Of a stretch of 64,000 bases of DNA, positions 38,287 through 49,977 are shown piece by piece. The notes under the pieces were generated by a model. It was not told the origin of the DNA. It made no database searches and worked only from the letters and a program-made list of their open reading frames with translations. The DNA is from Opitutales bacterium (GTDB taxonomy: Bacteria; Verrucomicrobiota; Verrucomicrobiia; Opitutales; JABSRG01): NCBI GenBank assembly GCA_049599475.1, contig JBMYOQ010000005.1, forward strand, positions 32,001-96,000. The letters are read 5' to 3'. The translations under genes were made by a program, and so were the position numbers. Positions within the stretch are counted from its first letter, which is position 1, and each line of letters begins with the position of its first letter.

Positions 38287-40314
38287 TTAAGCGGGAAAGG
38301 TGTAATTATGCCCCGAGTGCGCTGAGATTTTATCGAGATAGACAAGATCGCTGTGGTAGGCTGCTCGGCGCGCTATCTCCACTTTAAATTCTTCGGTAAT
38401 TTGCTCTAGGTTTGTGTCAGGATTTAGCAAGTCGGCCCAGAAGCCGGCTTTACGTAGGACTCGATTCCAGGAAGCGCGATCTGCCTTGATTCTACCGAAT
38501 TTGTCAAGGTATCGGATTTTCCCAACGTGTGAGTAATGCTGGAAGATCTCGGGGGGTACTTCTGTGATGGGGTCGTCTTCGTTGACGAATCTAAAGATCT
38601 GTCCCGACATTTCTTCCATCAGGAATGTGGCGAAGTCTTTGTCCCCGGGACGGGGCGATCCGTAAGTATACAGGCCGGATACTGGGATCTTCTGAGCGCA
38701 TAAATCTGCTGCGCAGAGGGTTGCCAGGCCGGCTCCTAGACTGTGGCCAGTGAGCCAAATTTCTCTTTCTGGATTTTCCTCAAGGGCTTCTTTTACTTGT
38801 GCGACCACGGTTTCTTTGACGGCGGAGTATGCACTGAGGAAGCCCTTGTGCACGGAGACTGTGGGGCCTGGGGTGTCGCCCAGAATATTCCAGCTGTCTA
38901 AGGGGATATTTAGATCGGTAATGATGTCTTGGAGTTCCTCTTTTTGTGTGCCTCGGAAGCAGATAGTTATGGAGTCATGGGTGTTTATGATGAATCCCTG
39001 GGTTCCGCGTGAAGCATTGTCTGCCCCTTCGCTGCCGAGCAGTATTGGCTTTTTAGATACGCCCATTTTGGAGACTTCTGGTTCGATCTCGGGGAATGGC
39101 AGGTATGCAATTTTGGAACAGCGCGCGGTCCAATATGCGATGTTTATGTCGAATGTGTCTTCGTCGGAAGCCATTGCTTCTGCGAAGGTTTTCGGGGTAT
39201 TGGTGTGGGCGGGCTGGGGTCCTTGCTGGTTGGCTGTTTTTGTCGGATTTTCAGAACTGTCCGCTTCTTTCTTTTCTGTTACGCCGGATACGGTAGCGCG
39301 GATTTTTGAGATTTTGTTCAGGATGTCATACCAGAAGGGTGCTCCGAGCGAGGCTGCGATGATGGTCGCGCTTAAGCCGATGATTTTTAAGAACCAATAG
39401 TGGGCGACCTGTCCGAAATCATCCTTTATGCAGCCGAAATCCATTTTCTTGAATTCGTAGTCGTCCCAGCCTAGGGGCACACCGGTGTTTTCAAGTTCGA
39501 GAACCGTATCTTCTACATTGTTGAAGGCTTCTTTGAAATTATTCGCCTGCTCTGAGCTGTCGTCTCCTTCCGTGCCGATTTCTTTATATGCCGCTTCTAC
39601 ACTGGCCTTTAAGATTTCGTCATTGGTCGAGAGGGCATTTATTATCCTTATCGTGTCAGCATTTATTAATACAGTCACGGCGATGGAGCTGATGATGACG
39701 TAGCGTTGGACGAGTCGCTTAAAGATACCCCGACTGCGGTCCATGCTCTCGTCGTACCAATTTCCAAGGGATTGAATAAGGGCGTCGCGCTCGCTGAGCT
39801 GTGGATTCTGGCGCTTGATGACTGCCGCGTGCTCGATTTGAGATTCGATCGCGTGGGCCAGCTGCACGCGTTGATCTTTCTCATCTTTATCCTTTAGCGA
39901 CTCGCTGTTTGCCCACCGTTTTACAGCGTGATTAAATCCTCCCAAACTATAGCATGGCTCCTTGCTGATTAGCTGCATTAGGACCGTGGCAAAAGTCTTG
40001 GCGTTTAAGCTGGAGGGAGCATGATTCTCGGAGTTGCTTTTTTTCTGTGCGCTCTCCTCTTGTGTGCCTGAGCCTTGTGGGTCTGTTGCATTCTTACACT
40101 GGCGGGCTGGATCGATGAGTGCCAGAATTTTGGGCTGATTGAAAAATTGCTTTGTTAATGTGCTATTCTTAAAGAATAAGCGGTCTACTGTTTGCCTGAG
40201 GACCTTTGCTTTGAGGTGGAAGCGAGCGATCAGGATGTCGCTGATGGATGTCACCAGAGTGCTGAGTACTAGGTAGACGAAGAAGAGGCCGATAAATATT
40301 TCGAGAGCTTTCAT
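38287..40314 (-). CDS. Membrane protein of unknown family fused to a class-3 lipase domain
   Basis: N-domain with TM segments, PLGW and LGAPFWYDIL. Lipase motifs FRGT, VHKGF, TGHSLGA, YGSPRPG, VNEDDPI, H near the C-terminus. Confidence 0.85.
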   Translation of the reverse strand: MKALEIFIGLFFVYLVLSTLVTSISDILIARFHLKAKVLRQTVDRLFFKNSTLTKQFFNQPKILALIDPARQCKNATDPQGSGTQEESAQKKSNSENHAPSSLNAKTFATVLMQLISKEPCYSLGGFNHAVKRWANSESLKDKDEKDQRVQLAHAIESQIEHAAVIKRQNPQLSERDALIQSLGNWYDESMDRSRGIFKRLVQRYVIISSIAVTVLINADTIRIINALSTNDEILKASVEAAYKEIGTEGDDSSEQANNFKEAFNNVEDTVLELENTGVPLGWDDYEFKKMDFGCIKDDFGQVAHYWFLKIIGLSATIIAASLGAPFWYDILNKISKIRATVSGVTEKKEADSSENPTKTANQQGPQPAHTNTPKTFAEAMASDEDTFDINIAYWTARCSKIAYLPFPEIEPEVSKMGVSKKPILLGSEGADNASRGTQGFIINTHDSITICFRGTQKEELQDIITDLNIPLDSWNILGDTPGPTVSVHKGFLSAYSAVKETVVAQVKEALEENPEREIWLTGHSLGAGLATLCAADLCAQKIPVSGLYTYGSPRPGDKDFATFLMEEMSGQIFRFVNEDDPITEVPPEIFQHYSHVGKIRYLDKFGRIKADRASWNRVLRKAGFWADLLNPDTNLEQITEEFKVEIARRAAYHSDLVYLDKISAHSGHNYTFPA

Positions 40315-40560: not shown

Positions 40561-41295
40561 TTATTTGCCCCGCTGGTGGGATTGCACGAGGGCCTTGGCG
40601 ATTGCGTTTTCCACTCTGTTGCGAGAGTGGTTTATGTTTTGACGAATGCTCTTTCTGGCAGCTTGCGGGTCTTTGTTCTCAATGGCATCCAATATGGCCA
40701 AATGCTCTCCTGCTGTTTCTTGAATGCGGTGTGCATTTGTGATGACCGAAATTTTTACGAAGCGCAGACGCTCGTTCAAGCTGTGGAGAGAATCGGTGAT
40801 AGCCTGGTTGTTCAGGCTGTGAGCGAGACCCATGTGGAAATTGGTGTCACCCTCTACAAGGACTTCCGAATCGACCGTTTCGTCTGCCTGGATCTGCAGC
40901 CATTTTTCCCAGAAGCTACGTTGCTCCTGGACCCACTTTGCGTCGAGAGCAGAGTGGGTTGCCAAGGAATCTACGATAAACAGTTCCAGGGCCATGCGTA
41001 GATCGTAAAAGTCTTGGGTCTCTTTCGCGTCAGGTTGAATGACGAAGCATCCCTGGTTGGGCACCTTTTCCACGAGCTTTTGCTCTACAAGAGCTCGGAG
41101 TGCTTCTCGAATGGGGATGCGGCTGGCTGAAAACTCGGCGCAAAGAGATGCCTCAGAGAGGTGAAAGCCTGGGGGGTAATACCAGCTCAGGACTCGCTTG
41201 CGCAGAAGTTCCAAAATCTGCGCATTCGAACGACCGTGCCCGGTGGGGGGCGCGGTGTCTTTGGGGCGTGTCGCCTGAGTAGAGGGTTCCTGCAT
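40561..41295 (-). CDS. GntR-family (FadR/FCD) regulator
   Basis: LSEASLCAEFSASRIPIREAL HTH; FCD motifs DTNFH and EHLAILDAI. Divergent from the TonB receptor operon. Confidence 0.92.
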   Translation of the reverse strand: MQEPSTQATRPKDTAPPTGHGRSNAQILELLRKRVLSWYYPPGFHLSEASLCAEFSASRIPIREALRALVEQKLVEKVPNQGCFVIQPDAKETQDFYDLRMALELFIVDSLATHSALDAKWVQEQRSFWEKWLQIQADETVDSEVLVEGDTNFHMGLAHSLNNQAITDSLHSLNERLRFVKISVITNAHRIQETAGEHLAILDAIENKDPQAARKSIRQNINHSRNRVENAIAKALVQSHQRGK

Positions 41296-41355
41296 GGGTA
41301 CAACTGTCGGTTAAAAATGCTCATCTGCAACTGTGAATCGATTATTTTATAAAAA

Positions 41356-41376
41356 CGTATACGCTGTTGTATACAA
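41356..41376. promoter_or_regulatory. Tandem GTATAC palindromes, candidate GntR/FadR operator
   Basis: CGTATACG (41356-41363) and TTGTATACAA (41367-41376) in the divergent intergenic region. Confidence 0.65.
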
Positions 41377-41433
41377 TGGTATGGGTGCTGCTAAAGCCGA
41401 ATTGGACAAACTCATTCTTTCCGATTTCTAATT

Positions 41434-43890
41434 ATGATTACTGACTCACATCGTCCTTGGTCGCCAAAGAGCGCCACATCCTCCCGCCTGTTGACGGGTG
41501 GATTCTTCGTATGTGTTCTCGCAGGTTCTACATTGCAGGCACAGGAAGCGGAGGAAGATATCCTGGAGCTCGACAGCTATGTATTCGAGACCAACGAAAT
41601 TGACGACACAGGGATTCTTCCGGATCGTCCGATTGAAGGTTTCGGCGCGGGCTACTCGTCGTTGACGGAGATTCCGCGTTCGATCACGACTCTGGAGTCG
41701 GACCTCATCGACAATTTTGCGATTGAGAATGTAAACGACTTCGTGCGTGTCGCAGCGGGAACATACACGGGCAACTACTTTGGTGTTCCTGGAGCCCTCG
41801 ATGTGCGCGGTGACCGCGCTGACAATCTTTTCCGCGGGTTCCGTAGGGTAGAAAACCGAGGTAACTATCCGACTCCGCTTGGTGCGACAGAATTTGTCGA
41901 AATCATTAAAGGTCCCATGCCTGTTTCTTTTGGGCCAGGCAAGGTAGGAGGAGCGCTTAATTTCTATCCTAAAACAGCTAAAAGCGATACTGCGCAGATG
42001 CTAGATGAGGCAACGGGTAAAGTCACGGCAACCATTGGAAGTTACGATAAGTATATCGGCTCAATCGAGCATGGAGCCCCGTTAGAGGTTGGCGGTAAAA
42101 AGGGTGGTTACTATGCATACCTACGTGCCGAAGATACAGGAAGTTTCTATGATAATGTCTTCAGCGAAGGACTGCTCGGACAACTTGCTTTCAACTTCGA
42201 TCTCAGCGAAGATCTTCGTATCGAATTTGGCACGATGGCCCACTACAGCAATTTGGCTCAAAACTTGGGCTGGAACCGCGTAACGCAGGACCTGATCGAT
42301 AACGGAACTTATATCACTGGATTGGATACGGATGTCCAAGATACAAACGGAAATGGCTTCCTGGACCGTGACGAACTAGATCCTATCAATGACGTAGGTG
42401 CGGGGCTCGACCAGTTTGCATTTTTAGGAAATATGACAGGTATCACGACGCCTGCGGGCAGCCCTGGATTCTTCTTAGACAGCGGGCTCGGTACGACCAC
42501 GCTGGATCATAGCCAAGTCCAAGCGGACCCTGATGACTTCTCTGAGACAGATGCGATCGTCCTCTACTTTGACCTCATCAAGCGCATCGATTTCGATACT
42601 GTATTCACAAATCAAAGCTTCTTTGATGTCTACGATCACCACAAGTATTCAACTTATGGTTTCACTGCGAAATATGACACCTACGTGTTTGAAAATCGCT
42701 CTACATTTGAGAAGCGTTGGCAGCTAGAAAATGCGACTCTTACTTCTGAGCTTGGTGGTGGAATCCGCTACTCGGATGGTGAAGAGCGCGAATCACGGGG
42801 ACGTGGCTATCAAGTGCAAGATCGTCGCGACATTTCTTTGGATTACATCCCAGCTAATACACGTTTCGAGCAGGCAGAGGCCAATGGCGATGCAACGGAT
42901 ATTCCATACAATCACGTCCAAGAAGGGGATTACCTCAATCTTGGCTTGTTTGGAAGCTTGACTGCGGCATTTGACAATGGTCTTACCGCGCAAGCCGGTA
43001 TTCGCGAAGATTATTTCGAAGTCGAAACTGAGGGTTACAGCTTTGGCCCAGGATCCGGTGCCACCAATGAAGATGAGGACGAAGCCTTCTCCTTCAATCT
43101 AAGCCTGACTTACGACACTGGCACTGGCCTGTTCCCTTACGTCACGTATGCGGAGTCCAGCTATCTGGAGTTGGGGCAGGGTAGCATTCTTGACCAGGCG
43201 CTCATCGGAAATGGTTCTTGGCTCCAGGATTCCGAAGTATTCGAAATTGGTGTGAAGGGGTCGTTCTTCGATAAAACACTCTTCGCGACGATTGCTTACT
43301 ACGACCAAGAGCGCTCCTTCAACGATTCCAACGCGAATGCATCTGTTTCCTACGGTTCTAAAGGGGTTGAGGCAGAGCTGAGATGGGTGGTTAATGAGAA
43401 CCTCTCTTTCATTGGTGCAGCCACCTTTTCTGAAGCAGAATTGGATGCCTTCCCATTTTTCCTAGGTATCCCGCCGGAAGTGCTTGGATATTCATTGGAT
43501 GATATTTCCGAAATACCTTATGGTGGACGCTTCATCTCGGACGGCAATGCGATCGATCTCGGTATCTCAACACCCGCAGATTGGCCAGCACCTACCGAGA
43601 CACACTCGCTCACCGCGATCTACTCCATGGACAATGGGCTCGGCTTCTCTTTCGGGGGAACTTACATCGGCTCGACTTTCTCAGGATTCTTCGAAGAGGT
43701 AAGCTTGCCGTCTTACATCGAATTTAATGGTTCGATCTCATATAAATATAAGAATTGGAGCTTCAATGCCTCAGTCCTCAATATCTTCGAGGAAGAAGGC
43801 TATACCCCACAGTTCCTCTTCCAGGAAGTGTTTATTGGACCAAACATAAACGAGCGTCAGTACCAACTGACGGTTGCTTACGAATGGTAA
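41434..43890 (+). CDS. TonB-dependent receptor
   Basis: Signal peptide, plug motifs EIPRSIT..DVRG..EIIKGP..G.GG.LNF, beta-barrel composition, terminal aromatic residue (YEW). Confidence 0.92.
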   Translation: MITDSHRPWSPKSATSSRLLTGGFFVCVLAGSTLQAQEAEEDILELDSYVFETNEIDDTGILPDRPIEGFGAGYSSLTEIPRSITTLESDLIDNFAIENVNDFVRVAAGTYTGNYFGVPGALDVRGDRADNLFRGFRRVENRGNYPTPLGATEFVEIIKGPMPVSFGPGKVGGALNFYPKTAKSDTAQMLDEATGKVTATIGSYDKYIGSIEHGAPLEVGGKKGGYYAYLRAEDTGSFYDNVFSEGLLGQLAFNFDLSEDLRIEFGTMAHYSNLAQNLGWNRVTQDLIDNGTYITGLDTDVQDTNGNGFLDRDELDPINDVGAGLDQFAFLGNMTGITTPAGSPGFFLDSGLGTTTLDHSQVQADPDDFSETDAIVLYFDLIKRIDFDTVFTNQSFFDVYDHHKYSTYGFTAKYDTYVFENRSTFEKRWQLENATLTSELGGGIRYSDGEERESRGRGYQVQDRRDISLDYIPANTRFEQAEANGDATDIPYNHVQEGDYLNLGLFGSLTAAFDNGLTAQAGIREDYFEVETEGYSFGPGSGATNEDEDEAFSFNLSLTYDTGTGLFPYVTYAESSYLELGQGSILDQALIGNGSWLQDSEVFEIGVKGSFFDKTLFATIAYYDQERSFNDSNANASVSYGSKGVEAELRWVVNENLSFIGAATFSEAELDAFPFFLGIPPEVLGYSLDDISEIPYGGRFISDGNAIDLGISTPADWPAPTETHSLTAIYSMDNGLGFSFGGTYIGSTFSGFFEEVSLPSYIEFNGSISYKYKNWSFNASVLNIFEEEGYTPQFLFQEVFIGPNINERQYQLTVAYEW

Positions 43891-43901
43891 TCTCAGGTCG
43901 G

Positions 43902-43927
43902 CGGGCGAGGCAGAATAGTCTCGCCCG
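43902..43927 (+). terminator. Intercistronic GC-rich stem-loop after the TBDR gene
   Basis: CGGGCGAGGC-AGAATA-GTCTCGCCCG followed by a weak T-rich tail. Confidence 0.55.
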
Positions 43928-44064
43928 TTGTATTTCAAGTAGTTGTTTTGTTTGTAGTGTAAATATTGGTTAGATTAGGACAAACCGCGCATTCTCCGAA
44001 TGGTGAGATCTTTGGAGAATGCCGGGTTGTTCTAACGGCCTCTCAGAGTTCTCTTACCCATACC

Positions 44065-44634
44065 GTGAACGAATCGAGGAAAACAGAAATAGCGCAGAAT
44101 GTTGTAGCCGCTTTCAAGGGGTACGAAGCCGCATTGGTTTCCAACGACATTGAAGCCTTACAAAGTTACTTTCACCAATCGCCTGATGCTATTCGCTTCG
44201 GAGTGAATGAGCAATTATATGGCTACGAAGCGATCGCTCAGTTTCGCAAAGACCGTGTAATCAATTTTCGTAACCGGACGGAAAAACGCTTCGAAATCTC
44301 GGTTCTATCCGAGACTGTCGCGACCACGATGTACGAATACTCTATTGAGGTAGAGGGCGTGCCGCGAGATGGGAGACAGTCGCAGACATGGTTGTTCTCC
44401 GAGGGTAATTGGAAAATAATTACGGCACATGTTTCCCTACTTCCTGGTCGATCGGAAGTAGCTGACTGGAAACGCTTTGCACAGGAAAATGCAGCCTGCC
44501 TCGATTTTACTATCGATCCAGCTCATTTGGCAGGCGTTGTGCAACACCTAGAGACCATGGATAAACTTGTGGAGCCTCTGATGGATTTTGAATTGCCGGA
44601 GGACGTGGAGCCCGCTCCTGTATTTCGCCCATGA
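44065..44634 (+). CDS. AtzH/HpxZ-like (DUF3225) domain fused to AtzG/HpxX-like (DUF4089) domain
   Basis: Likely GTG start at 44065, in frame with ORF 43966. N-part AFKGYEAALVSND..IRFG..LYGYEAIAQFR..GRQSQTW..WKIITAHVS. C-part AACLDFTIDPAHLAGVVQHL..LMDFELPEDVEPAPVFRP. Confidence 0.85.
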   Translation: MNESRKTEIAQNVVAAFKGYEAALVSNDIEALQSYFHQSPDAIRFGVNEQLYGYEAIAQFRKDRVINFRNRTEKRFEISVLSETVATTMYEYSIEVEGVPRDGRQSQTWLFSEGNWKIITAHVSLLPGRSEVADWKRFAQENAACLDFTIDPAHLAGVVQHLETMDKLVEPLMDFELPEDVEPAPVFRP

Positions 44635-46028
44635 GCACACCTTATTATCGCATGCAAGCTGCAGAAATTGCGGCAGGTGTGAAAACGAAACAATTTTCGG
44701 CGGTCGAAATTGTCCAAGCATGTATTGATAGAATAGATACTGTAGGGCAGAAGCTAAATGCATTTACACGGGTCACGCGTGAGCGCGCACTCGCAGAAGC
44801 GGCGGAACTGGATGCTGCGCTTGCTCGAGGCGAAGATGTTGGCCCCCTTGCAGGCGTTCCTTTTGCCGTGAAAAATCTCTTCGACTTAAAGGGCGAGGTG
44901 ACTGTTGCAGGGTCCAAAATTAACAGAGATAATGATCCGGCGGAATCCGATGCGACCGCGGTCCAGCGCCTTACTCAAGCTGGAGCCATTTGCGTGGGCG
45001 CACTCAATATGGGGGAATACGCCTATGATTTTGTCACTGAAAATGCCCACGATGGCGCGACGCTCAATCCTTGGGACTTGGGGCATTCGGCGGGCGGTTC
45101 CTCGGGTGGCTCAGGAGCAGCAACGGCGGGTGGGCTTGTGCCCATAACTCTTGGAACGGATACCAATGGATCTATCCGAGTGCCTTCTTCATTCTGCGGT
45201 ATTTGGGGAATACGCCCCACCTATGGGCGTCTCTCTCGCGGAGGTTCGTTTGCCTTTGTTGATAGTATTGATACGATTGGCCCGTTCGCGCGGAGTGTTG
45301 AGGATCTTGCTCAAGCCTACGATGCCATGTCAGGTCCCGACGCACGCGATGCCGCATGCTCGGAGTTGCCAGAAACCGCGTTTGCCCAAACCCTGACTTC
45401 GGCTGATACACCGTTTAGGATCGCCAAGCTTGGGGGCTATTTCGCGGAAGGCGGCGATCCCAAGGTGCATGCGGCCGTGGATACCGTCATGGCGGCTTTA
45501 GGAGTCAGTGAATCAGTCGAGATCCCTGAGCCAGCGCTCGCTAGAACCTCTGCATTTGTCATTACTTGCGCAGAAGCCGGAGCACGCCATCTAGACCGAG
45601 TGCGCAGCCGTGCTCATGATTTCGATCCGAATATTCGCGACCGCTTTATTGCCGGTACGATGGTTCCGCACGCTTGGGTGGATAAGGCCCAGCGCTTTCG
45701 CACCTGGTGGCATGGCGAGGTGATGAAGGTGTTTGAATCCGTAGATATATTGATTGCACCGGCGACACCGCTTACTGCTTCAAAGCTTGGCCAAAAGACT
45801 CTGAGCTTCAACGGGGAGCAGTTGCCCCTACGCCCCAATATCGGCCTATTTACGCAGCCCTTGTCGTTTGCGGGTCTTCCTATTTTAGCGGCTCCAGTGC
45901 ATCGCGACGAGCAGATGCCGTGTGCCGTCCAGCTGGTAGCGGCTCCGCATGCTGAAGAAAAATTATTTAAATTGGCTCGAAAGTTGGAGACGATGGGGGT
46001 GTGCACCTCCCCGGTGGCTTCATTTTAA
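44631..46028 (+). CDS. atzE: AtzE-family amidase (1-carboxybiuret hydrolase-like)
   Basis: GPLAGVPFAVKNLFD, LNMGEYAYDF..ENAH, GGSSGGS, GTDTNGSIRVPS (Ser-cisSer-Lys triad intact). ATGA overlap with the upstream gene. Confidence 0.88.
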   Translation: MSTPYYRMQAAEIAAGVKTKQFSAVEIVQACIDRIDTVGQKLNAFTRVTRERALAEAAELDAALARGEDVGPLAGVPFAVKNLFDLKGEVTVAGSKINRDNDPAESDATAVQRLTQAGAICVGALNMGEYAYDFVTENAHDGATLNPWDLGHSAGGSSGGSGAATAGGLVPITLGTDTNGSIRVPSSFCGIWGIRPTYGRLSRGGSFAFVDSIDTIGPFARSVEDLAQAYDAMSGPDARDAACSELPETAFAQTLTSADTPFRIAKLGGYFAEGGDPKVHAAVDTVMAALGVSESVEIPEPALARTSAFVITCAEAGARHLDRVRSRAHDFDPNIRDRFIAGTMVPHAWVDKAQRFRTWWHGEVMKVFESVDILIAPATPLTASKLGQKTLSFNGEQLPLRPNIGLFTQPLSFAGLPILAAPVHRDEQMPCAVQLVAAPHAEEKLFKLARKLETMGVCTSPVASF

Positions 46029-46050
46029 GTGTATCCTAAATTAAATTACA

Positions 46051-46731
46051 ATGTCTCCTGCGCCTGTTAATGCCCAGCCTTTTGAGTTCCATCTGAAGAT
46101 GGATGAGTGTGCATTCCTCATCATTGATATGCAGCGGGACTTTGTTGAGCCTGGAGGTTTTGGAGAATCTTTGGGAAATGATGTATCCTTGCTCCGTTCG
46201 ACAATATTGCCTACGGCTCGGTTGCTGGCTGCATGGCGCGAAATGGGGGGTAAAGTGATACACACGCGTGAAGGGCATTTGCCGGATTTGTCGGATCTTC
46301 CGGAATCTAAGCGCACGCGAGGCAATCCGGAAATTGCGATAGGGGATACCGGGCCGATGGGCCGCATTCTAATTCGCGGCGAAGCGGGCCAAGGCATCAT
46401 TCCTGAGTTAGCCCCCGCCGAGGGTGAGTGCGTGATCGATAAGCCGGGGAAGGGCGCATTCTATAATACGTCTCTCGGAGATTATTTGAAGGCGGAAGGG
46501 ATCACTCAATTGATTGTTGCAGGAGTGACCACTGAGGTTTGCGTGCACACCACCGTGCGAGAGGCCAATGATCGCGGATATGACTGCCTCGTATTATCGG
46601 ACTGCACAGGGTCTTATTTCCCGGAATTTCATGAAATGGCCTTAAAAATGGTCGTAGCTCAGAGCGGCATATTTGGCTGGGTGTCCGAGAGTGCATCTAT
46701 CTTAAACGCACTAGATAAATTGAAGGAATAA
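46051..46731 (+). CDS. trtA: Cysteine hydrolase (isochorismatase fold), triuret hydrolase TrtA-type
   Basis: Triad IDMQ/DKPGK/EVCV. The positions that discriminate TrtA from BiuH are TrtA-type: GGF-GESL-GN, TTE, SYF, GIF (BiuH has Y, M, Y, D, T, V). Confidence 0.8.
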   Translation: MSPAPVNAQPFEFHLKMDECAFLIIDMQRDFVEPGGFGESLGNDVSLLRSTILPTARLLAAWREMGGKVIHTREGHLPDLSDLPESKRTRGNPEIAIGDTGPMGRILIRGEAGQGIIPELAPAEGECVIDKPGKGAFYNTSLGDYLKAEGITQLIVAGVTTEVCVHTTVREANDRGYDCLVLSDCTGSYFPEFHEMALKMVVAQSGIFGWVSESASILNALDKLKE

Positions 46732-46737
46732 AACGCG

Positions 46738-48312
46738 ATGACTGATTCCACGAATACTTTTAAGCCCAAGCTCTGGGTTCCCGGAGATTGGAATGCATTT
46801 TTTGGATACGGGACAAATATTTTGGTAAATGTCCTCACGCTCACAGGCTTATTGAGATTCGTATTGGGCTTTCCTGACGAGCTTGTTTTCGGTCGAGTAT
46901 TACCAGCAGTCGGGTTGATGCTTTTCCTGTCCACTTTTTATTATTCCTGGATGGCGTATCGTCTGGCGAAGGAAACGGGACGCACCGATGTCTGTGCACT
47001 CCCATCCGGGCCGGGAGTGGGGCACATGTTTATCTGTGTGTTTGTGGTCATGATGCCGATAAAAATGGAGACGGGCGATCCTGTTAAAGCTTGGGAAGCC
47101 GGCCTCACCTGGGTGTTTATTCAGAGTTTTGTCCTCGTGATCGGCGCATTCTTGGGGAAGTGGATTCGTAAGATTACCCCGCGTGCTGCGCTTTTGGGTA
47201 CTCTCGCTGGGGTCGCGATTACTTTTATCTCAATGCGTCCACTGATGCAGATGTTCCTCACTCCAGCGATTGGCGTGCTGTGCTTTGTCATCATTATGGC
47301 AGGCTGGTTCGGAGGTGTGAAATTCTTCAAGGGAATGCCCGCAGGTTTAGTTGCCTTGTTGGGAGGCACTGCCATTGCTTGGGGATCTCAATTATTCGGA
47401 ATGAATCTGGGTGGCTTGTCGCTTGAGGGGGTGACTGACTCTTTGAAATATTTTGGATTTAGCATTCCGATTCCAGCCCTCGATCATACGTTTTCGGGCT
47501 TCGAGTTTTTAGGTATCCTGCTCGTGACTGCGATTCCCTTCGGCCTGTATGATTTGATCGAAGCGATCGATAATGTGGAGAGCTCCGCCGCAGCGGGAGA
47601 CCCATATCCTACCAAAAAAGTGCTCTTGGCCGACGGTGTTGTCAGTATGATCGGTTGCTTGATGGGGAATCCATTTACCTTAGCCGTTTATATTGGGCAT
47701 CCCGGCTGGAAGGCTATGGGTGGCCGTATCGGCTACACTTTGGCAACAGGTGTTATGGTGATTCTGTTGTGCTGGTTTGGTACAGTCTCTGTGATATTGG
47801 CCGTCGTGCCGGTTGTCGCAATATTACCAATACTTTTATATATCGGACTCTTGATTGGCTCTCAGGCATTTCAAGAGACTCCCGCGCGTCACGCACCCGC
47901 AGTGATCATGGCGATGGTGCCGCACATGGCACACTGGGCTGGAGGTATGATCGAGGGTGCGCTCAATGCAAATGGCATTTTCGAACGCACACCAGAGCTC
48001 TACGAGAAGCTCGCTGGGGAAGGTGTATTGCTTCAAGGCCTACACAAAGTCGGAGATGGTGCAGCGCTCTCTGGGATTATTCTGGCGACGATGACTGTGT
48101 TTATCATCGAACGAAAATTACAGTATGCCGCGATTGCTGCCGCGATTGGCGCCGGCCTGACTTATTTGGGCTTAATGCATGGTCAAAATGTGGGCTGGGC
48201 GATGAATCCGAGTATAGCGCTGGGATACTTGATGACGGCTGGGTTTCTTGCCTTGTGCTCACGCCAGAAACTCGATCCCGTTCCTGAAGACCCACATCAC
48301 CATGCGTCTTAG
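46738..48312 (+). CDS. NCS2/AzgA-like (xanthine/uracil-type) permease
   Basis: About 13 TM segments; PGDWNAFFG, ALPSG, NVESSAAAGDPY, VYIGHPGWKAMG. Confidence 0.82.
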   Translation: MTDSTNTFKPKLWVPGDWNAFFGYGTNILVNVLTLTGLLRFVLGFPDELVFGRVLPAVGLMLFLSTFYYSWMAYRLAKETGRTDVCALPSGPGVGHMFICVFVVMMPIKMETGDPVKAWEAGLTWVFIQSFVLVIGAFLGKWIRKITPRAALLGTLAGVAITFISMRPLMQMFLTPAIGVLCFVIIMAGWFGGVKFFKGMPAGLVALLGGTAIAWGSQLFGMNLGGLSLEGVTDSLKYFGFSIPIPALDHTFSGFEFLGILLVTAIPFGLYDLIEAIDNVESSAAAGDPYPTKKVLLADGVVSMIGCLMGNPFTLAVYIGHPGWKAMGGRIGYTLATGVMVILLCWFGTVSVILAVVPVVAILPILLYIGLLIGSQAFQETPARHAPAVIMAMVPHMAHWAGGMIEGALNANGIFERTPELYEKLAGEGVLLQGLHKVGDGAALSGIILATMTVFIIERKLQYAAIAAAIGAGLTYLGLMHGQNVGWAMNPSIALGYLMTAGFLALCSRQKLDPVPEDPHHHAS

Positions 48313-49237
48313 GCCTTTTTATAGCCTGGTTTTTGCTGCCGTACTGGCGGGGCCGTTGGTGGCACAGCCGGTTTGGCTGGATATGGACCAGCAGGCATTG
48401 GATGATGCGTATAATCAGAGTGTATGGGCCGGGAACCTAGAGCAGGTCATTGCTCGCTTCGATTCGAACAGTGATCGCGCCCGAGCAGCCCTCGGAGCGC
48501 CCAAGCGATTCACGTATGGGCAGGAGCCGGATGAAGGTATTGATGTTTATAGGACGTCTGCCGATAACGCACCTATTCATATTTTCATACATGGAGGAGC
48601 CTGGTTTTTGGGGCGCGCACATGGAAACGCGCATGCGGCTGAGGCCTTCGTGGATGCGGGAGTGCATTTTGTAGTTCCTGATTTTTCATCGGTGAAAGAT
48701 CTTGGAGGCAACCTCGGCGGGATGGTTGCGCAGCTGCGAGCGGCTGTCGCGTGGGTCTATAAGAATGCGGCGACAGAGTTTGGTGGTGATCCTAACCGAA
48801 TATTTCTCTCCGGTTTTTCATCAGGAGGCCATCTTGCGTCAGTCCTTGCTACGACGGATTGGCCAGCGTTCGAAAAAGGCCTGCCATCTCAAATGTTTCA
48901 AGGCGCGGTCCTCTGTAGTGGAATGTATGATCTGTATCCCGTCAGCCTGTCGGCCCGCAGAGAGTATGTGAATTTCACAGATCAGATTATCGAAGATTAT
49001 AGCGCATTGAGACAGCTTCATTACCTAAACTGTCCAATCGTGCTGGCTTACGGTGGATTGGAGTCGCCCGAGTTTAAGCGGCAATCCGAGGTGTTTTATG
49101 AGGCACTCACAAAGGCTGAAGTTCCGGTCGAATTGATCGTCGCGGAGCAATACAATCATTTCGAAGTGATAGAGACCCTGGGGAACCCGTTCGGGCATTT
49201 AGGCAAGGCAGCTCTAGCGCAGATTTTCGGGAAATAG
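48302..49237 (+). CDS. Exported alpha/beta hydrolase, arylformamidase (kynurenine formamidase)-like
   Basis: Likely start ATG 48302 with signal peptide MRLRPFYSLVFAAVLAGPLVAQ; HGGAW, GFSSGG, ESPEF, NHFE. Confidence 0.82.
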   Translation: MRLRPFYSLVFAAVLAGPLVAQPVWLDMDQQALDDAYNQSVWAGNLEQVIARFDSNSDRARAALGAPKRFTYGQEPDEGIDVYRTSADNAPIHIFIHGGAWFLGRAHGNAHAAEAFVDAGVHFVVPDFSSVKDLGGNLGGMVAQLRAAVAWVYKNAATEFGGDPNRIFLSGFSSGGHLASVLATTDWPAFEKGLPSQMFQGAVLCSGMYDLYPVSLSARREYVNFTDQIIEDYSALRQLHYLNCPIVLAYGGLESPEFKRQSEVFYEALTKAEVPVELIVAEQYNHFEVIETLGNPFGHLGKAALAQIFGK

Positions 49238-49290: not shown

Positions 49291-49977
49291 TTATTCGACC
49301 TCTTGATACAGGGATTGGCTTATGATCGATCCGTGCTCACTTTCGGAAATAGCCCTTGTGATTGAAGGCTGTGCGTCTAGAGCCTGGCCGAGCATCTTAA
49401 GTCCATCCGTGTTGAAAGAAATTAAGTGGCTGAATGATCCATCTCCGACTTCTACTCGAAACATGTTAATGTAGATGTCTTTGCTGACAGTTTCTTGAGT
49501 CTGGGTCTGCCATCTTTCAAGAGTCTCGAGGAGCTTGGATTCATTTTTTGCGGCTACCCGTAGATTCAGGAGTGTGCCAGGAGTGTGGGTTCCGTCGAAA
49601 CGAACTGCTTTTAGATAAGTGTGTGAACCGGACGATTGAAGAGTCCGTGAAAGTGTGTTGCTTGCTGCTGTCCAGTCGGGGTGTTTCGAGAAAAGATCTC
49701 GGTTTGTGAGCAGGGATTCGAACGATAGGGCCGGGATAAGTGTGAAGCCGCCCTGTGTGTCGAGTGACTGATATGCTCGAAGGAAAAGCGGAATATCATG
49801 TTGATCGCTCATCCGCGCATTGATCGCCTGCATCTCCTGTTGAAAGCGTGGCAGGTCGGAAAACGCGACAGGTTCTATACAAATTGCCGGCAGGATCTCT
49901 GGCGCCTCAGCTTTTATTGCTATAGTTTGTGAGAGTAAAACCGCGAGGCTTAGGCAAAGGATATAAGGTGTGTGCAT
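49291..49977 (-). CDS. Exported hypothetical protein
   Basis: Signal-peptide-like N-terminus, 228 aa, no family recognised with confidence. Confidence 0.65.
   Translation of the reverse strand: MHTPYILCLSLAVLLSQTIAIKAEAPEILPAICIEPVAFSDLPRFQQEMQAINARMSDQHDIPLFLRAYQSLDTQGGFTLIPALSFESLLTNRDLFSKHPDWTAASNTLSRTLQSSGSHTYLKAVRFDGTHTPGTLLNLRVAAKNESKLLETLERWQTQTQETVSKDIYINMFRVEVGDGSFSHLISFNTDGLKMLGQALDAQPSITRAISESEHGSIISQSLYQEVE

Follow-up and report, generated by a model that had tools for sequence, protein, structure and literature searches.

A predicted triuret catabolic operon in an Opitutales genome pairs a TrtA-type hydrolase with an AtzE-family amidase and an AtzH–AtzG fusion

Organization of the locus

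Triuret is an oxidation product of uric acid. In a 64-kb stretch of DNA from an Opitutales bacterium (assembly GCA_049599475.1, contig JBMYOQ010000005.1; hereafter the window, to which all unlabelled coordinates refer), a candidate operon for triuret catabolism brings together a TrtA-type cysteine hydrolase, an AtzE-family amidase and a fusion of AtzH to AtzG. The genes form a co-oriented run on the forward strand. A TonB-dependent receptor (TBDR; 41434-43890), in which Pfam recognizes only the Plug domain, is followed by the AtzH (DUF3225)–AtzG fusion of 189 aa (44065-44634; PF11533, E 6e-34, and PF13318, E 1e-11, in one frame), by atzE (44631-46028; TIGR02715), and by the TrtA-type hydrolase of the isochorismatase family (46051-46731), assigned by its residues, best PDB match and position in a tree. 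A membrane permease of a family annotated 'regulator', the usual neighbour of trtA (46738-48312), and an arylformamidase-like alpha/beta hydrolase (48302-49237; BD-FAE/Abhydrolase_3) with a signal-peptide-like start complete the run. The fusion and atzE overlap by 4 nt and the permease and last hydrolase by 11 nt, the remaining gaps being 174, 22 and 6 nt, and the GC content of the operon genes (0.49-0.55) is the same as that of the flanks.

Divergent from this run, a GntR/FCD (FadR-type) regulator gene, gntR, with the Pfam GntR and FCD domains, lies at 40561-41295 on the reverse strand. Between the two, on the forward strand, operator-like sites (41356-41376), presumptively assigned to GntR, are abutted by a sigma-54-type −24/−12 promoter of the form GG-N10-GC (41377-41392). 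A sequence-only reading that preceded this analysis had described the same gene order, and all of its open reading frames are found where it placed them; as it also said, no allophanate hydrolase lies within the 64-kb window.

The cysteine hydrolase

The hydrolase has the IHL catalytic triad D24/K129/C162 and the substrate residues F29, E72, K132 and Q202, at positions taken from PMC7948467. The same paper gives six positions that separate TrtA from BiuH (F35, N41, A134, E160, Y187 and I205 in TrtA). The hydrolase carries F35, L39, N41, A134, E160, Y187, Q202 and I205, all of the TrtA type, and shows the TrtA signature DFFLNEKKAECYQI as opposed to the BiuH signature DFYMYEKKSDCTQV. Its best PDB match is TrtA (6XIX, 275.8 bits), with two BiuH structures at 249 and 225 bits, and it fails the BiuH family model (275.7, below the cut-off of 370), which Rhizobium BiuH passes (428) and Rhizobium TrtA fails. 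In a 28-row tree it falls inside a 17-row TrtA group (support 87/97), in which Rhizobium and Ideonella TrtA stand in for the assayed enzyme and one row (L200) is without the signature; the split from BiuH is supported at 98/98. The placement is thus with TrtA and apart from both BiuH and GuuH-like proteins, and residues, family model and PDB match agree with the earlier suggestion of a TrtA-type rather than a BiuH enzyme. The assignment of 46051-46731 as a TrtA-type triuret hydrolase is supported at the sequence level; the reaction itself, triuret to carboxybiuret and NH3, was demonstrated for Herbaspirillum TrtA (PMC7948467).

Two tandem cysteine hydrolases in an atzG-atzE-atzH cluster of Salipiger (L152:133-1508; G and L labels denote the genomes and loci compared) have signatures unlike those of TrtA, BiuH and GuuH-like proteins.

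The AtzH–AtzG fusion and the amidase

GTG 44065, and not TTG 43966, is the most likely start of the fusion, and gives the 189 aa of database protein P0001. Its AtzG part scores 45.1 bits against PF13318 (cut-off 24). The predicted structure (predicted local distance difference test, pLDDT, 87.8) consists of an NTF2-like domain and a two-helix tail, and its top fold match is AtzH (6D63, root-mean-square deviation 1.2 Å over 119 columns). The AtzH pocket comprises Y22, R46, R63, R66, R73, F94, R96, Q106 and Q108, with Tyr22 and Arg46 catalytic (PMC6219798). Seven of these nine residues (Y22, R46, R63, R66, R73, Q106 and Q108) are kept in the H domain of the fusion, which fails the HpxZ/AtzH equivalog model (106, below 135); at best, it would work like AtzH without being a full member of that family. 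Among the 120 homologues listed, 14 carry both domains, counting that of the window, and the fusion is common to G177, L052, L054 and G410. A metagenome scan with the fusion returned one locus, in which the two are unfused.

TrtB, AtzH and HpxZ are homologues (PMC12625717, legend to Fig. S11), which makes TrtB a possible identity for the H domain. In trtA loci that have no atzE, three DUF3225 proteins, taken as TrtB from that context, lack Arg66 and form a group with support of 100/100. Membership of the H domain in this TrtB-like group, which was set by context without an assayed TrtB sequence and was named after an earlier tree, was rejected when the grouping was forced (approximately unbiased test, p-AU 0.0014), and Arg66 is kept in the H domain.

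The amidase passes TIGR02715 (643.6, cut-off 425.75) and has 6C62 as its best PDB match. It keeps K74, S150 and S174, which we take to be the AtzE triad (positions checked on AtzE of Pseudomonas sp. ADP, hereafter ADP, from L142), as well as Y125, N172 and Q402 (ADP numbering), whose roles we likewise assume. The AtzE, AtzG and AtzH assignments made beforehand are supported by residues and family models. When 44631-46028 is placed among AtzE and HpxY sequences, the amidase groups with the G177, L052 and L064 orthologues (support 99-100) rather than with either ADP AtzE (49% identity) or Klebsiella HpxY (45%). It is likely to be a 1-carboxybiuret amidohydrolase. A D121G/G126D swap considered as a marker of specificity was rejected, both states being found in trtA and ggt contexts.

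Recurrence of the trtA-atzE pairing

The window's operon recurs in L052, where it ends in atzF, and in the complete genome G177, which has two isochorismatase matches (TrtA and a distant one), no BiuH-like match and an AtzF elsewhere. AtzD was not found in G177 by a search that detects an AtzD-family gene in the host genome (G000). Operons ending in or including atzF are L052, L082, L147, G737, G796 and G948, and the Terrarubrum locus L147 runs trtA-permease-atzF-atzG-atzE-atzH. Among 401 genomes of the phylum, atzE is above the cut-off in two, G000 and G177, both times beside trtA; four others have trtA and biuH. On plasmids, 11 of 27 atzE records were examined and three of them (Terrarubrum, Paroceanicella and Azospirillum) have a TrtA-signature gene in the cluster.

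The broadest survey covered 301 genomes of the class of G404, this seed included, a class other than the host's. There, atzE is present in 17 genomes and TrtA-signature genes in 24 (two with one change and one interrupted by a stop), with both in 11; nine of the 17 atzE genes lie on the same contig as trtA and within 8 kb of it. Among the trtA genomes, atzE occurs in 8 of the 11 without a BiuH-like match and in 3 of the 13 with one (Fisher p 0.038, or 0.040 without the seed), p values that overstate the association since related genomes are not independent. BiuH was checked by signature in four of those 13 genomes and recognized by identity and position in the rest, and two matches of 46-47% in G948 were left out of the BiuH count without such a check.

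Of 581 trtA-like loci, many of them incomplete, the 80 best include 78 with the exact signature. BiuH genes are found in 21 of these 80 (20 by signature, one by identity), and never together with atzE; mutual exclusion of the two in this sample was considered and set aside as too thin to count. Over half of these 80 closest loci (L026-L105) have only trtA and the permease, with neither biuH nor atzE nearby, and a cupin follows biuH in 18 loci.

A sister operon in G410, from the same family and 97% complete, has the order gntR-TBDR-H/G-atzE-permease-atzF with the same promoter (L156:5505-14361). Its TBDR is 73% and its permease 85% identical to the window's counterparts, and the amidase and H domain cluster with those of an acidobacterial locus and not with the window's.

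TrtA-signature hydrolases also head DUF2877-fdrA-DUF1116-arcC runs, encoding an allFGH-type transcarbamylase and carbamate kinase, on E. coli plasmids and in Photobacterium (L168:8001-13559, L165:7986-13437 and L167:8001-15162); the signature is altered in Peptoclostridium, and one of the 77 Escherichia records matched was examined. These genes are a possible third, ATP-yielding downstream module for TrtA.

Regulator and promoter

Orthologues of gntR, 46-53% identical, hold the same position in G177, L052 and G410, and the GntR/FCD protein is likely to repress the operon. The operator-like sites consist of CGTATACG at 41356-41363 and the palindrome TTGTATACAA at 41367-41376. The hexamer GTATAC noted earlier is indeed present upstream of the TBDR, at 41357 and, inside the palindrome, at 41369; on its own it is a weak marker, occurring 11 times in the window against 4.3 expected. 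The palindrome TTGTATACAA at 41367 adjoins TGGTATGGGTGCTGCT at 41377, a GG-N10-GC site that we take to be of the sigma-54 type. The box GTATACAAT is invariant in all four orthologous intergenic regions (window, G177, L052 and G410), each of which has GG-N10-GC within 20 nt after it, and the joint pattern, although drawn from these same four regions, occurs once in the 4.68-Mb genome. The L054 intergenic region has neither box nor sigma-54-type site. The gene rpoN is present in G000. Of 13 other loci scanned, three (L204, L205 and L208) have comparable boxes between or ahead of their genes; scans for sigma-70 promoters and terminators stayed at chance level, and a search of papers for the operator sequence gave no relevant match. 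Box and promoter, as read from these motifs, would suit an operon that scavenges nitrogen under a repressor of its own.

At G000:C57:16226, TTGTATACAA forms part of a long palindrome upstream of a sigma-54-like site and a urea ABC importer-urease cluster; this palindrome is possibly a site of the same regulator, or a terminator.

Transporters, accessory hydrolase and flanking genes

A TBDR occupies the same position in G177, L052, L054 and G410 (35-73% identity) and is likely to serve uptake across the outer membrane. The permease, called NCS2-like in the sequence-only reading, finds no match in Pfam, even with the threshold relaxed to E 0.1; that description rests on its nearest named atlas cluster, Xan_ur_permease (0.89), and on its 39% identity to proteins annotated as xanthine permease. 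It follows trtA in most of the 80 best loci and is likely to serve uptake across the inner membrane. A second permease of this unnamed family (35% identity) stands back to back with another TBDR at G000:C10:45830-49956.

Homologues of the last hydrolase are labelled arylformamidase, and its signal peptide was judged by eye. It has no homologue in any fetched related operon; a pathway role considered for it is unsupported by synteny, and we judge it to be accessory. A 228-aa protein without a Pfam match (49291-49977, reverse strand) closes the operon from the opposite strand, and a 675-aa membrane protein with a class 3 lipase domain (38287-40314, reverse strand) lies behind gntR.

The rest of the host genome

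The host genome (G000) is 96.6% complete, and the nearest rows in the trees make the host a probable member of the Verrucomicrobiota. Of its four isochorismatase matches only that of the operon is TrtA/BiuH-like, so that the proposed lack of BiuH holds genome-wide at this completeness. AtzF (690.9, cut-off 511.05) and urea carboxylase are encoded on contig C11 and urease on C57, and allophanate can accordingly be finished. The C11 run (L012:3419-15990) comprises urea carboxylase, two DUF1989 proteins and AtzF, together with an ABC importer, a creatininase-like gene and a type III glutamine synthetase-like gene.

The absence of AtzD claimed beforehand is true of the operon but not of the genome, as an AtzD-family ring-opening amidohydrolase gene on C39 passes the cyanuric acid amidohydrolase model NF052395 (429.5, cut-off 360). 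The protein is 41% identical to ADP AtzD and keeps the Ser/Lys/Arg motifs aligned to it. At this locus (G000:C39:17758-21708, equal to L011:9759-13709; neighbouring stretch L011:14023-20000) an amidase other than AtzE and an NCS2 permease come after the AtzD-family gene, and these genes face a TBDR, a 2OG-Fe(II) oxygenase, an NMT1-type ABC importer and a DUF3891 gene, with a sigma-54-like site upstream of the TBDR.

Proposed pathway and alternatives

On balance, the operon probably imports triuret and converts it to 1-carboxybiuret, 1,3-dicarboxyurea and then allophanate, bypassing biuret; from gene content, residues and synteny we infer the reactions and the transport. Under nitrogen limitation and in the presence of an inducer, GntR repression would lift and, to judge from the motifs, sigma-54 polymerase would transcribe the operon. 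The TBDR and permease would import triuret, from which TrtA, its diagnostic residues being identical, would release NH3 to yield carboxybiuret. AtzE, kept soluble by the AtzG tail, would release a second NH3 before carboxybiuret, with a half-life of ∼20 min (PMC7948467), decays to biuret, presumably a dead end here because the genome lacks BiuH. The AtzH domain, which we propose to be tethered to AtzE through AtzG, would decarboxylate dicarboxyurea to allophanate. AtzF (C11) would then release the last two nitrogens, with urease and urea carboxylase mopping up urea; these genes are present in the genome and their link to the operon is presumptive. Cyanuric acid could enter at this AtzE step by way of the C39 AtzD-family enzyme. 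The carboxybiuret step has been demonstrated for ADP AtzEG, and the AtzH decarboxylation is a proposal even for ADP (PMC6219798). A hybrid route with TrtA as the entry enzyme, as the sequence-only reading envisaged, gains from the residues, the family models, the AtzF elsewhere in the genome and the recurring synteny with AtzF in sister operons, and loses from the same operon standing without trtA in G410.

Several observations weigh against this pathway. The G410 sister operon marks where the model may fail, since no trtA, biuH or atzD was found in that genome and the module can therefore be kept without a known carboxybiuret source; either trtA was lost there, or the module acts directly on biuret, triuret or another ureide. 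Membership in the AtzE family does not fix the substrate of the amidase, because Klebsiella HpxY passes TIGR02715 as well (683 bits), and comparable AtzE residues do not sort by genomic context. In the H domain, F94 is replaced by Tyr and Arg96 by Ile, and the subgroup of fusions to which it belongs has no Arg96. Among the 80 best trtA loci only 4 contain atzE, and in 301 genomes of the order two of the four with atzE are without trtA. Three of the 13 biuH-bearing trtA genomes of the class sample carry atzE too, and the Azospirillum cluster L153 has biuH as well as trtA and atzE. Elsewhere atzE is found with ggt, atzD or xanthine dehydrogenase-like genes, and trtA with allFGH/arcC. No box is shared with the region upstream of the host's AtzF operon, to which the operon is unlinked. 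Finally, in the tree ADP AtzE stands apart from the trtA-linked rows and joins an atzD-linked Pseudomonas enzyme and, weakly, HpxY, which lends no support to descent of the ADP operon from a triuret operon.

An unlikely alternative, though the best of those considered, is that the DUF3225 domain is a TrtB-type carboxybiuret decarboxylase and the amidase a biuret amidohydrolase, the sequence being triuret, carboxybiuret, biuret and allophanate. The homology of TrtB, AtzH and HpxZ (PMC12625717), the loss of Arg96 and the tendency of atzE to occur where biuH is missing are in keeping with it, as is the G410 module without trtA or atzD, biuret being stable enough for import and carboxybiuret short-lived. 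Set against these are Arg66 and the rejected grouping with TrtB-like proteins, whose identity was taken from context only, the retention of all nine AtzH pocket residues in the G410 H domain, and the loci with both biuH and atzE (L153 and G696), which argue for different substrates. ADP, which has AtzEG, cannot degrade biuret (PMC6219798).

It is less probable again that the amidase is itself active on triuret or on several acyl-ureas, such that H/G-AtzE-AtzF suffices and TrtA is an optional accelerator. The trtA-less G410 operon is cleanly joined, the atzE stop running into the permease gene, and atzF-atzG-atzE-atzH clusters without atzD are common (PMC6219798; L145, G748); however, the nine of 17 class-sample atzE genes that lie beside trtA are hard to explain if TrtA is dispensable, and no residues of AtzE point to triuret binding. 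Least probable, by a little, is an HpxY-type amidase converting oxalurate to oxamate and co-regulated with TrtA rather than acting in series with it: HpxY scores above the cut-off of the AtzE model, the AtzH pocket is retained in HpxZ, TrtA-signature genes also stand beside allFGH/arcC, the other oxalurate module (L165, L168), and the G578 atzE lies among xanthine dehydrogenase-like genes, but no hpxW/ggt is found in the operon or in any fetched trtA-atzE locus, the linked downstream enzyme AtzF implies allophanate, and the amidase is no closer to HpxY than to ADP AtzE.

In the triuret-to-allophanate pathway that we favour, the pairing, which recurs in many unrelated bacteria, would likely strip nitrogen from triuret. 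Given that roughly half of the atzE genes of one class sample have trtA beside them, triuret becomes a concrete candidate for a natural substrate, and the operon for a second triuret route. A wider proposal is tentative: triuret from urate oxidation may be a natural substrate that has maintained AtzG-E-H across several phyla, as a second, biuret-free route alternating with TrtB/BiuH, the cyanuric acid operon being the same lower pathway with its entry enzyme swapped, and the fusion may tie the decarboxylase to the amidase and so hand unstable dicarboxyurea on, without losing it as urea. The tree of AtzE does not back the earlier suggestion that such a route may reflect what AtzEGH natively does, and triuret is just one context among several (ggt/hpxW, atzD, xdh). 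The pairing has cultured carriers in Terrarubrum flagellatum and Paroceanicella profunda, and the natural H-G fusion is a ready test case for substrate hand-over.

Comparison with known systems

All the enzymes of the operon are known. The combination of trtA with AtzE/G/H and the H-G fusion were not found described in the available literature text, in which some supplementary figures are images, and this is not proof of absence. PMC7948467, in its accessible text, describes only trtA-trtB-biuH-atzF operons; it states that AtzEG acts on the TrtA product, and that either a decarboxylase or a deaminase handles carboxybiuret in cyanuric acid degraders; besides AtzD, TrtA is the only enzyme that it names as producing carboxybiuret. 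According to PMC6219798, atzG-atzE-atzH clusters are widespread without atzD and probably older than the cyanuric acid operon; the contexts given are ggt, atzF and a monooxygenase, and its accessible text assigns them no substrate.

One of the closest known systems is the TrtA-TrtB-BiuH-AtzF pathway of Herbaspirillum sp. BH-1 and Rhizobium leguminosarum 3841 (PMC7948467), which resembles the operon in TrtA entry, a GntR-type regulator and convergence on allophanate. It differs in that the host genome is without BiuH, the operon having AtzE and the AtzH–AtzG fusion in place of TrtB/BiuH, in the use of a TBDR and secondary permease instead of a BMP ABC importer, and in the unlinked atzF of the host.

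With the atzDGEHF operon of ADP (PMC6219798) the operon shares the AtzE triad, AtzG, the AtzH residues Tyr22 and Arg46, and the proposed lower pathway. In contrast to ADP, TrtA takes the place of atzD, and the atzD and atzF homologues lie on other contigs; AtzH and AtzG are fused, H first, with Arg96 lost; and a GntR regulator and sigma-54-type promoter replace the LysR regulator. AtzE and the H domain are 49% and 39% identical to their ADP counterparts and belong to a different branch. The third relative, hpxWXYZ of Klebsiella, belongs to the oxalurate/oxamate branch of purine catabolism, and its X/Y/Z trio is homologous to AtzG/AtzE/AtzH; whereas that system includes hpxW (ggt), of which there is none nearby here, the neighbours of the trio in this operon are trtA and, in the sister operons, atzF.

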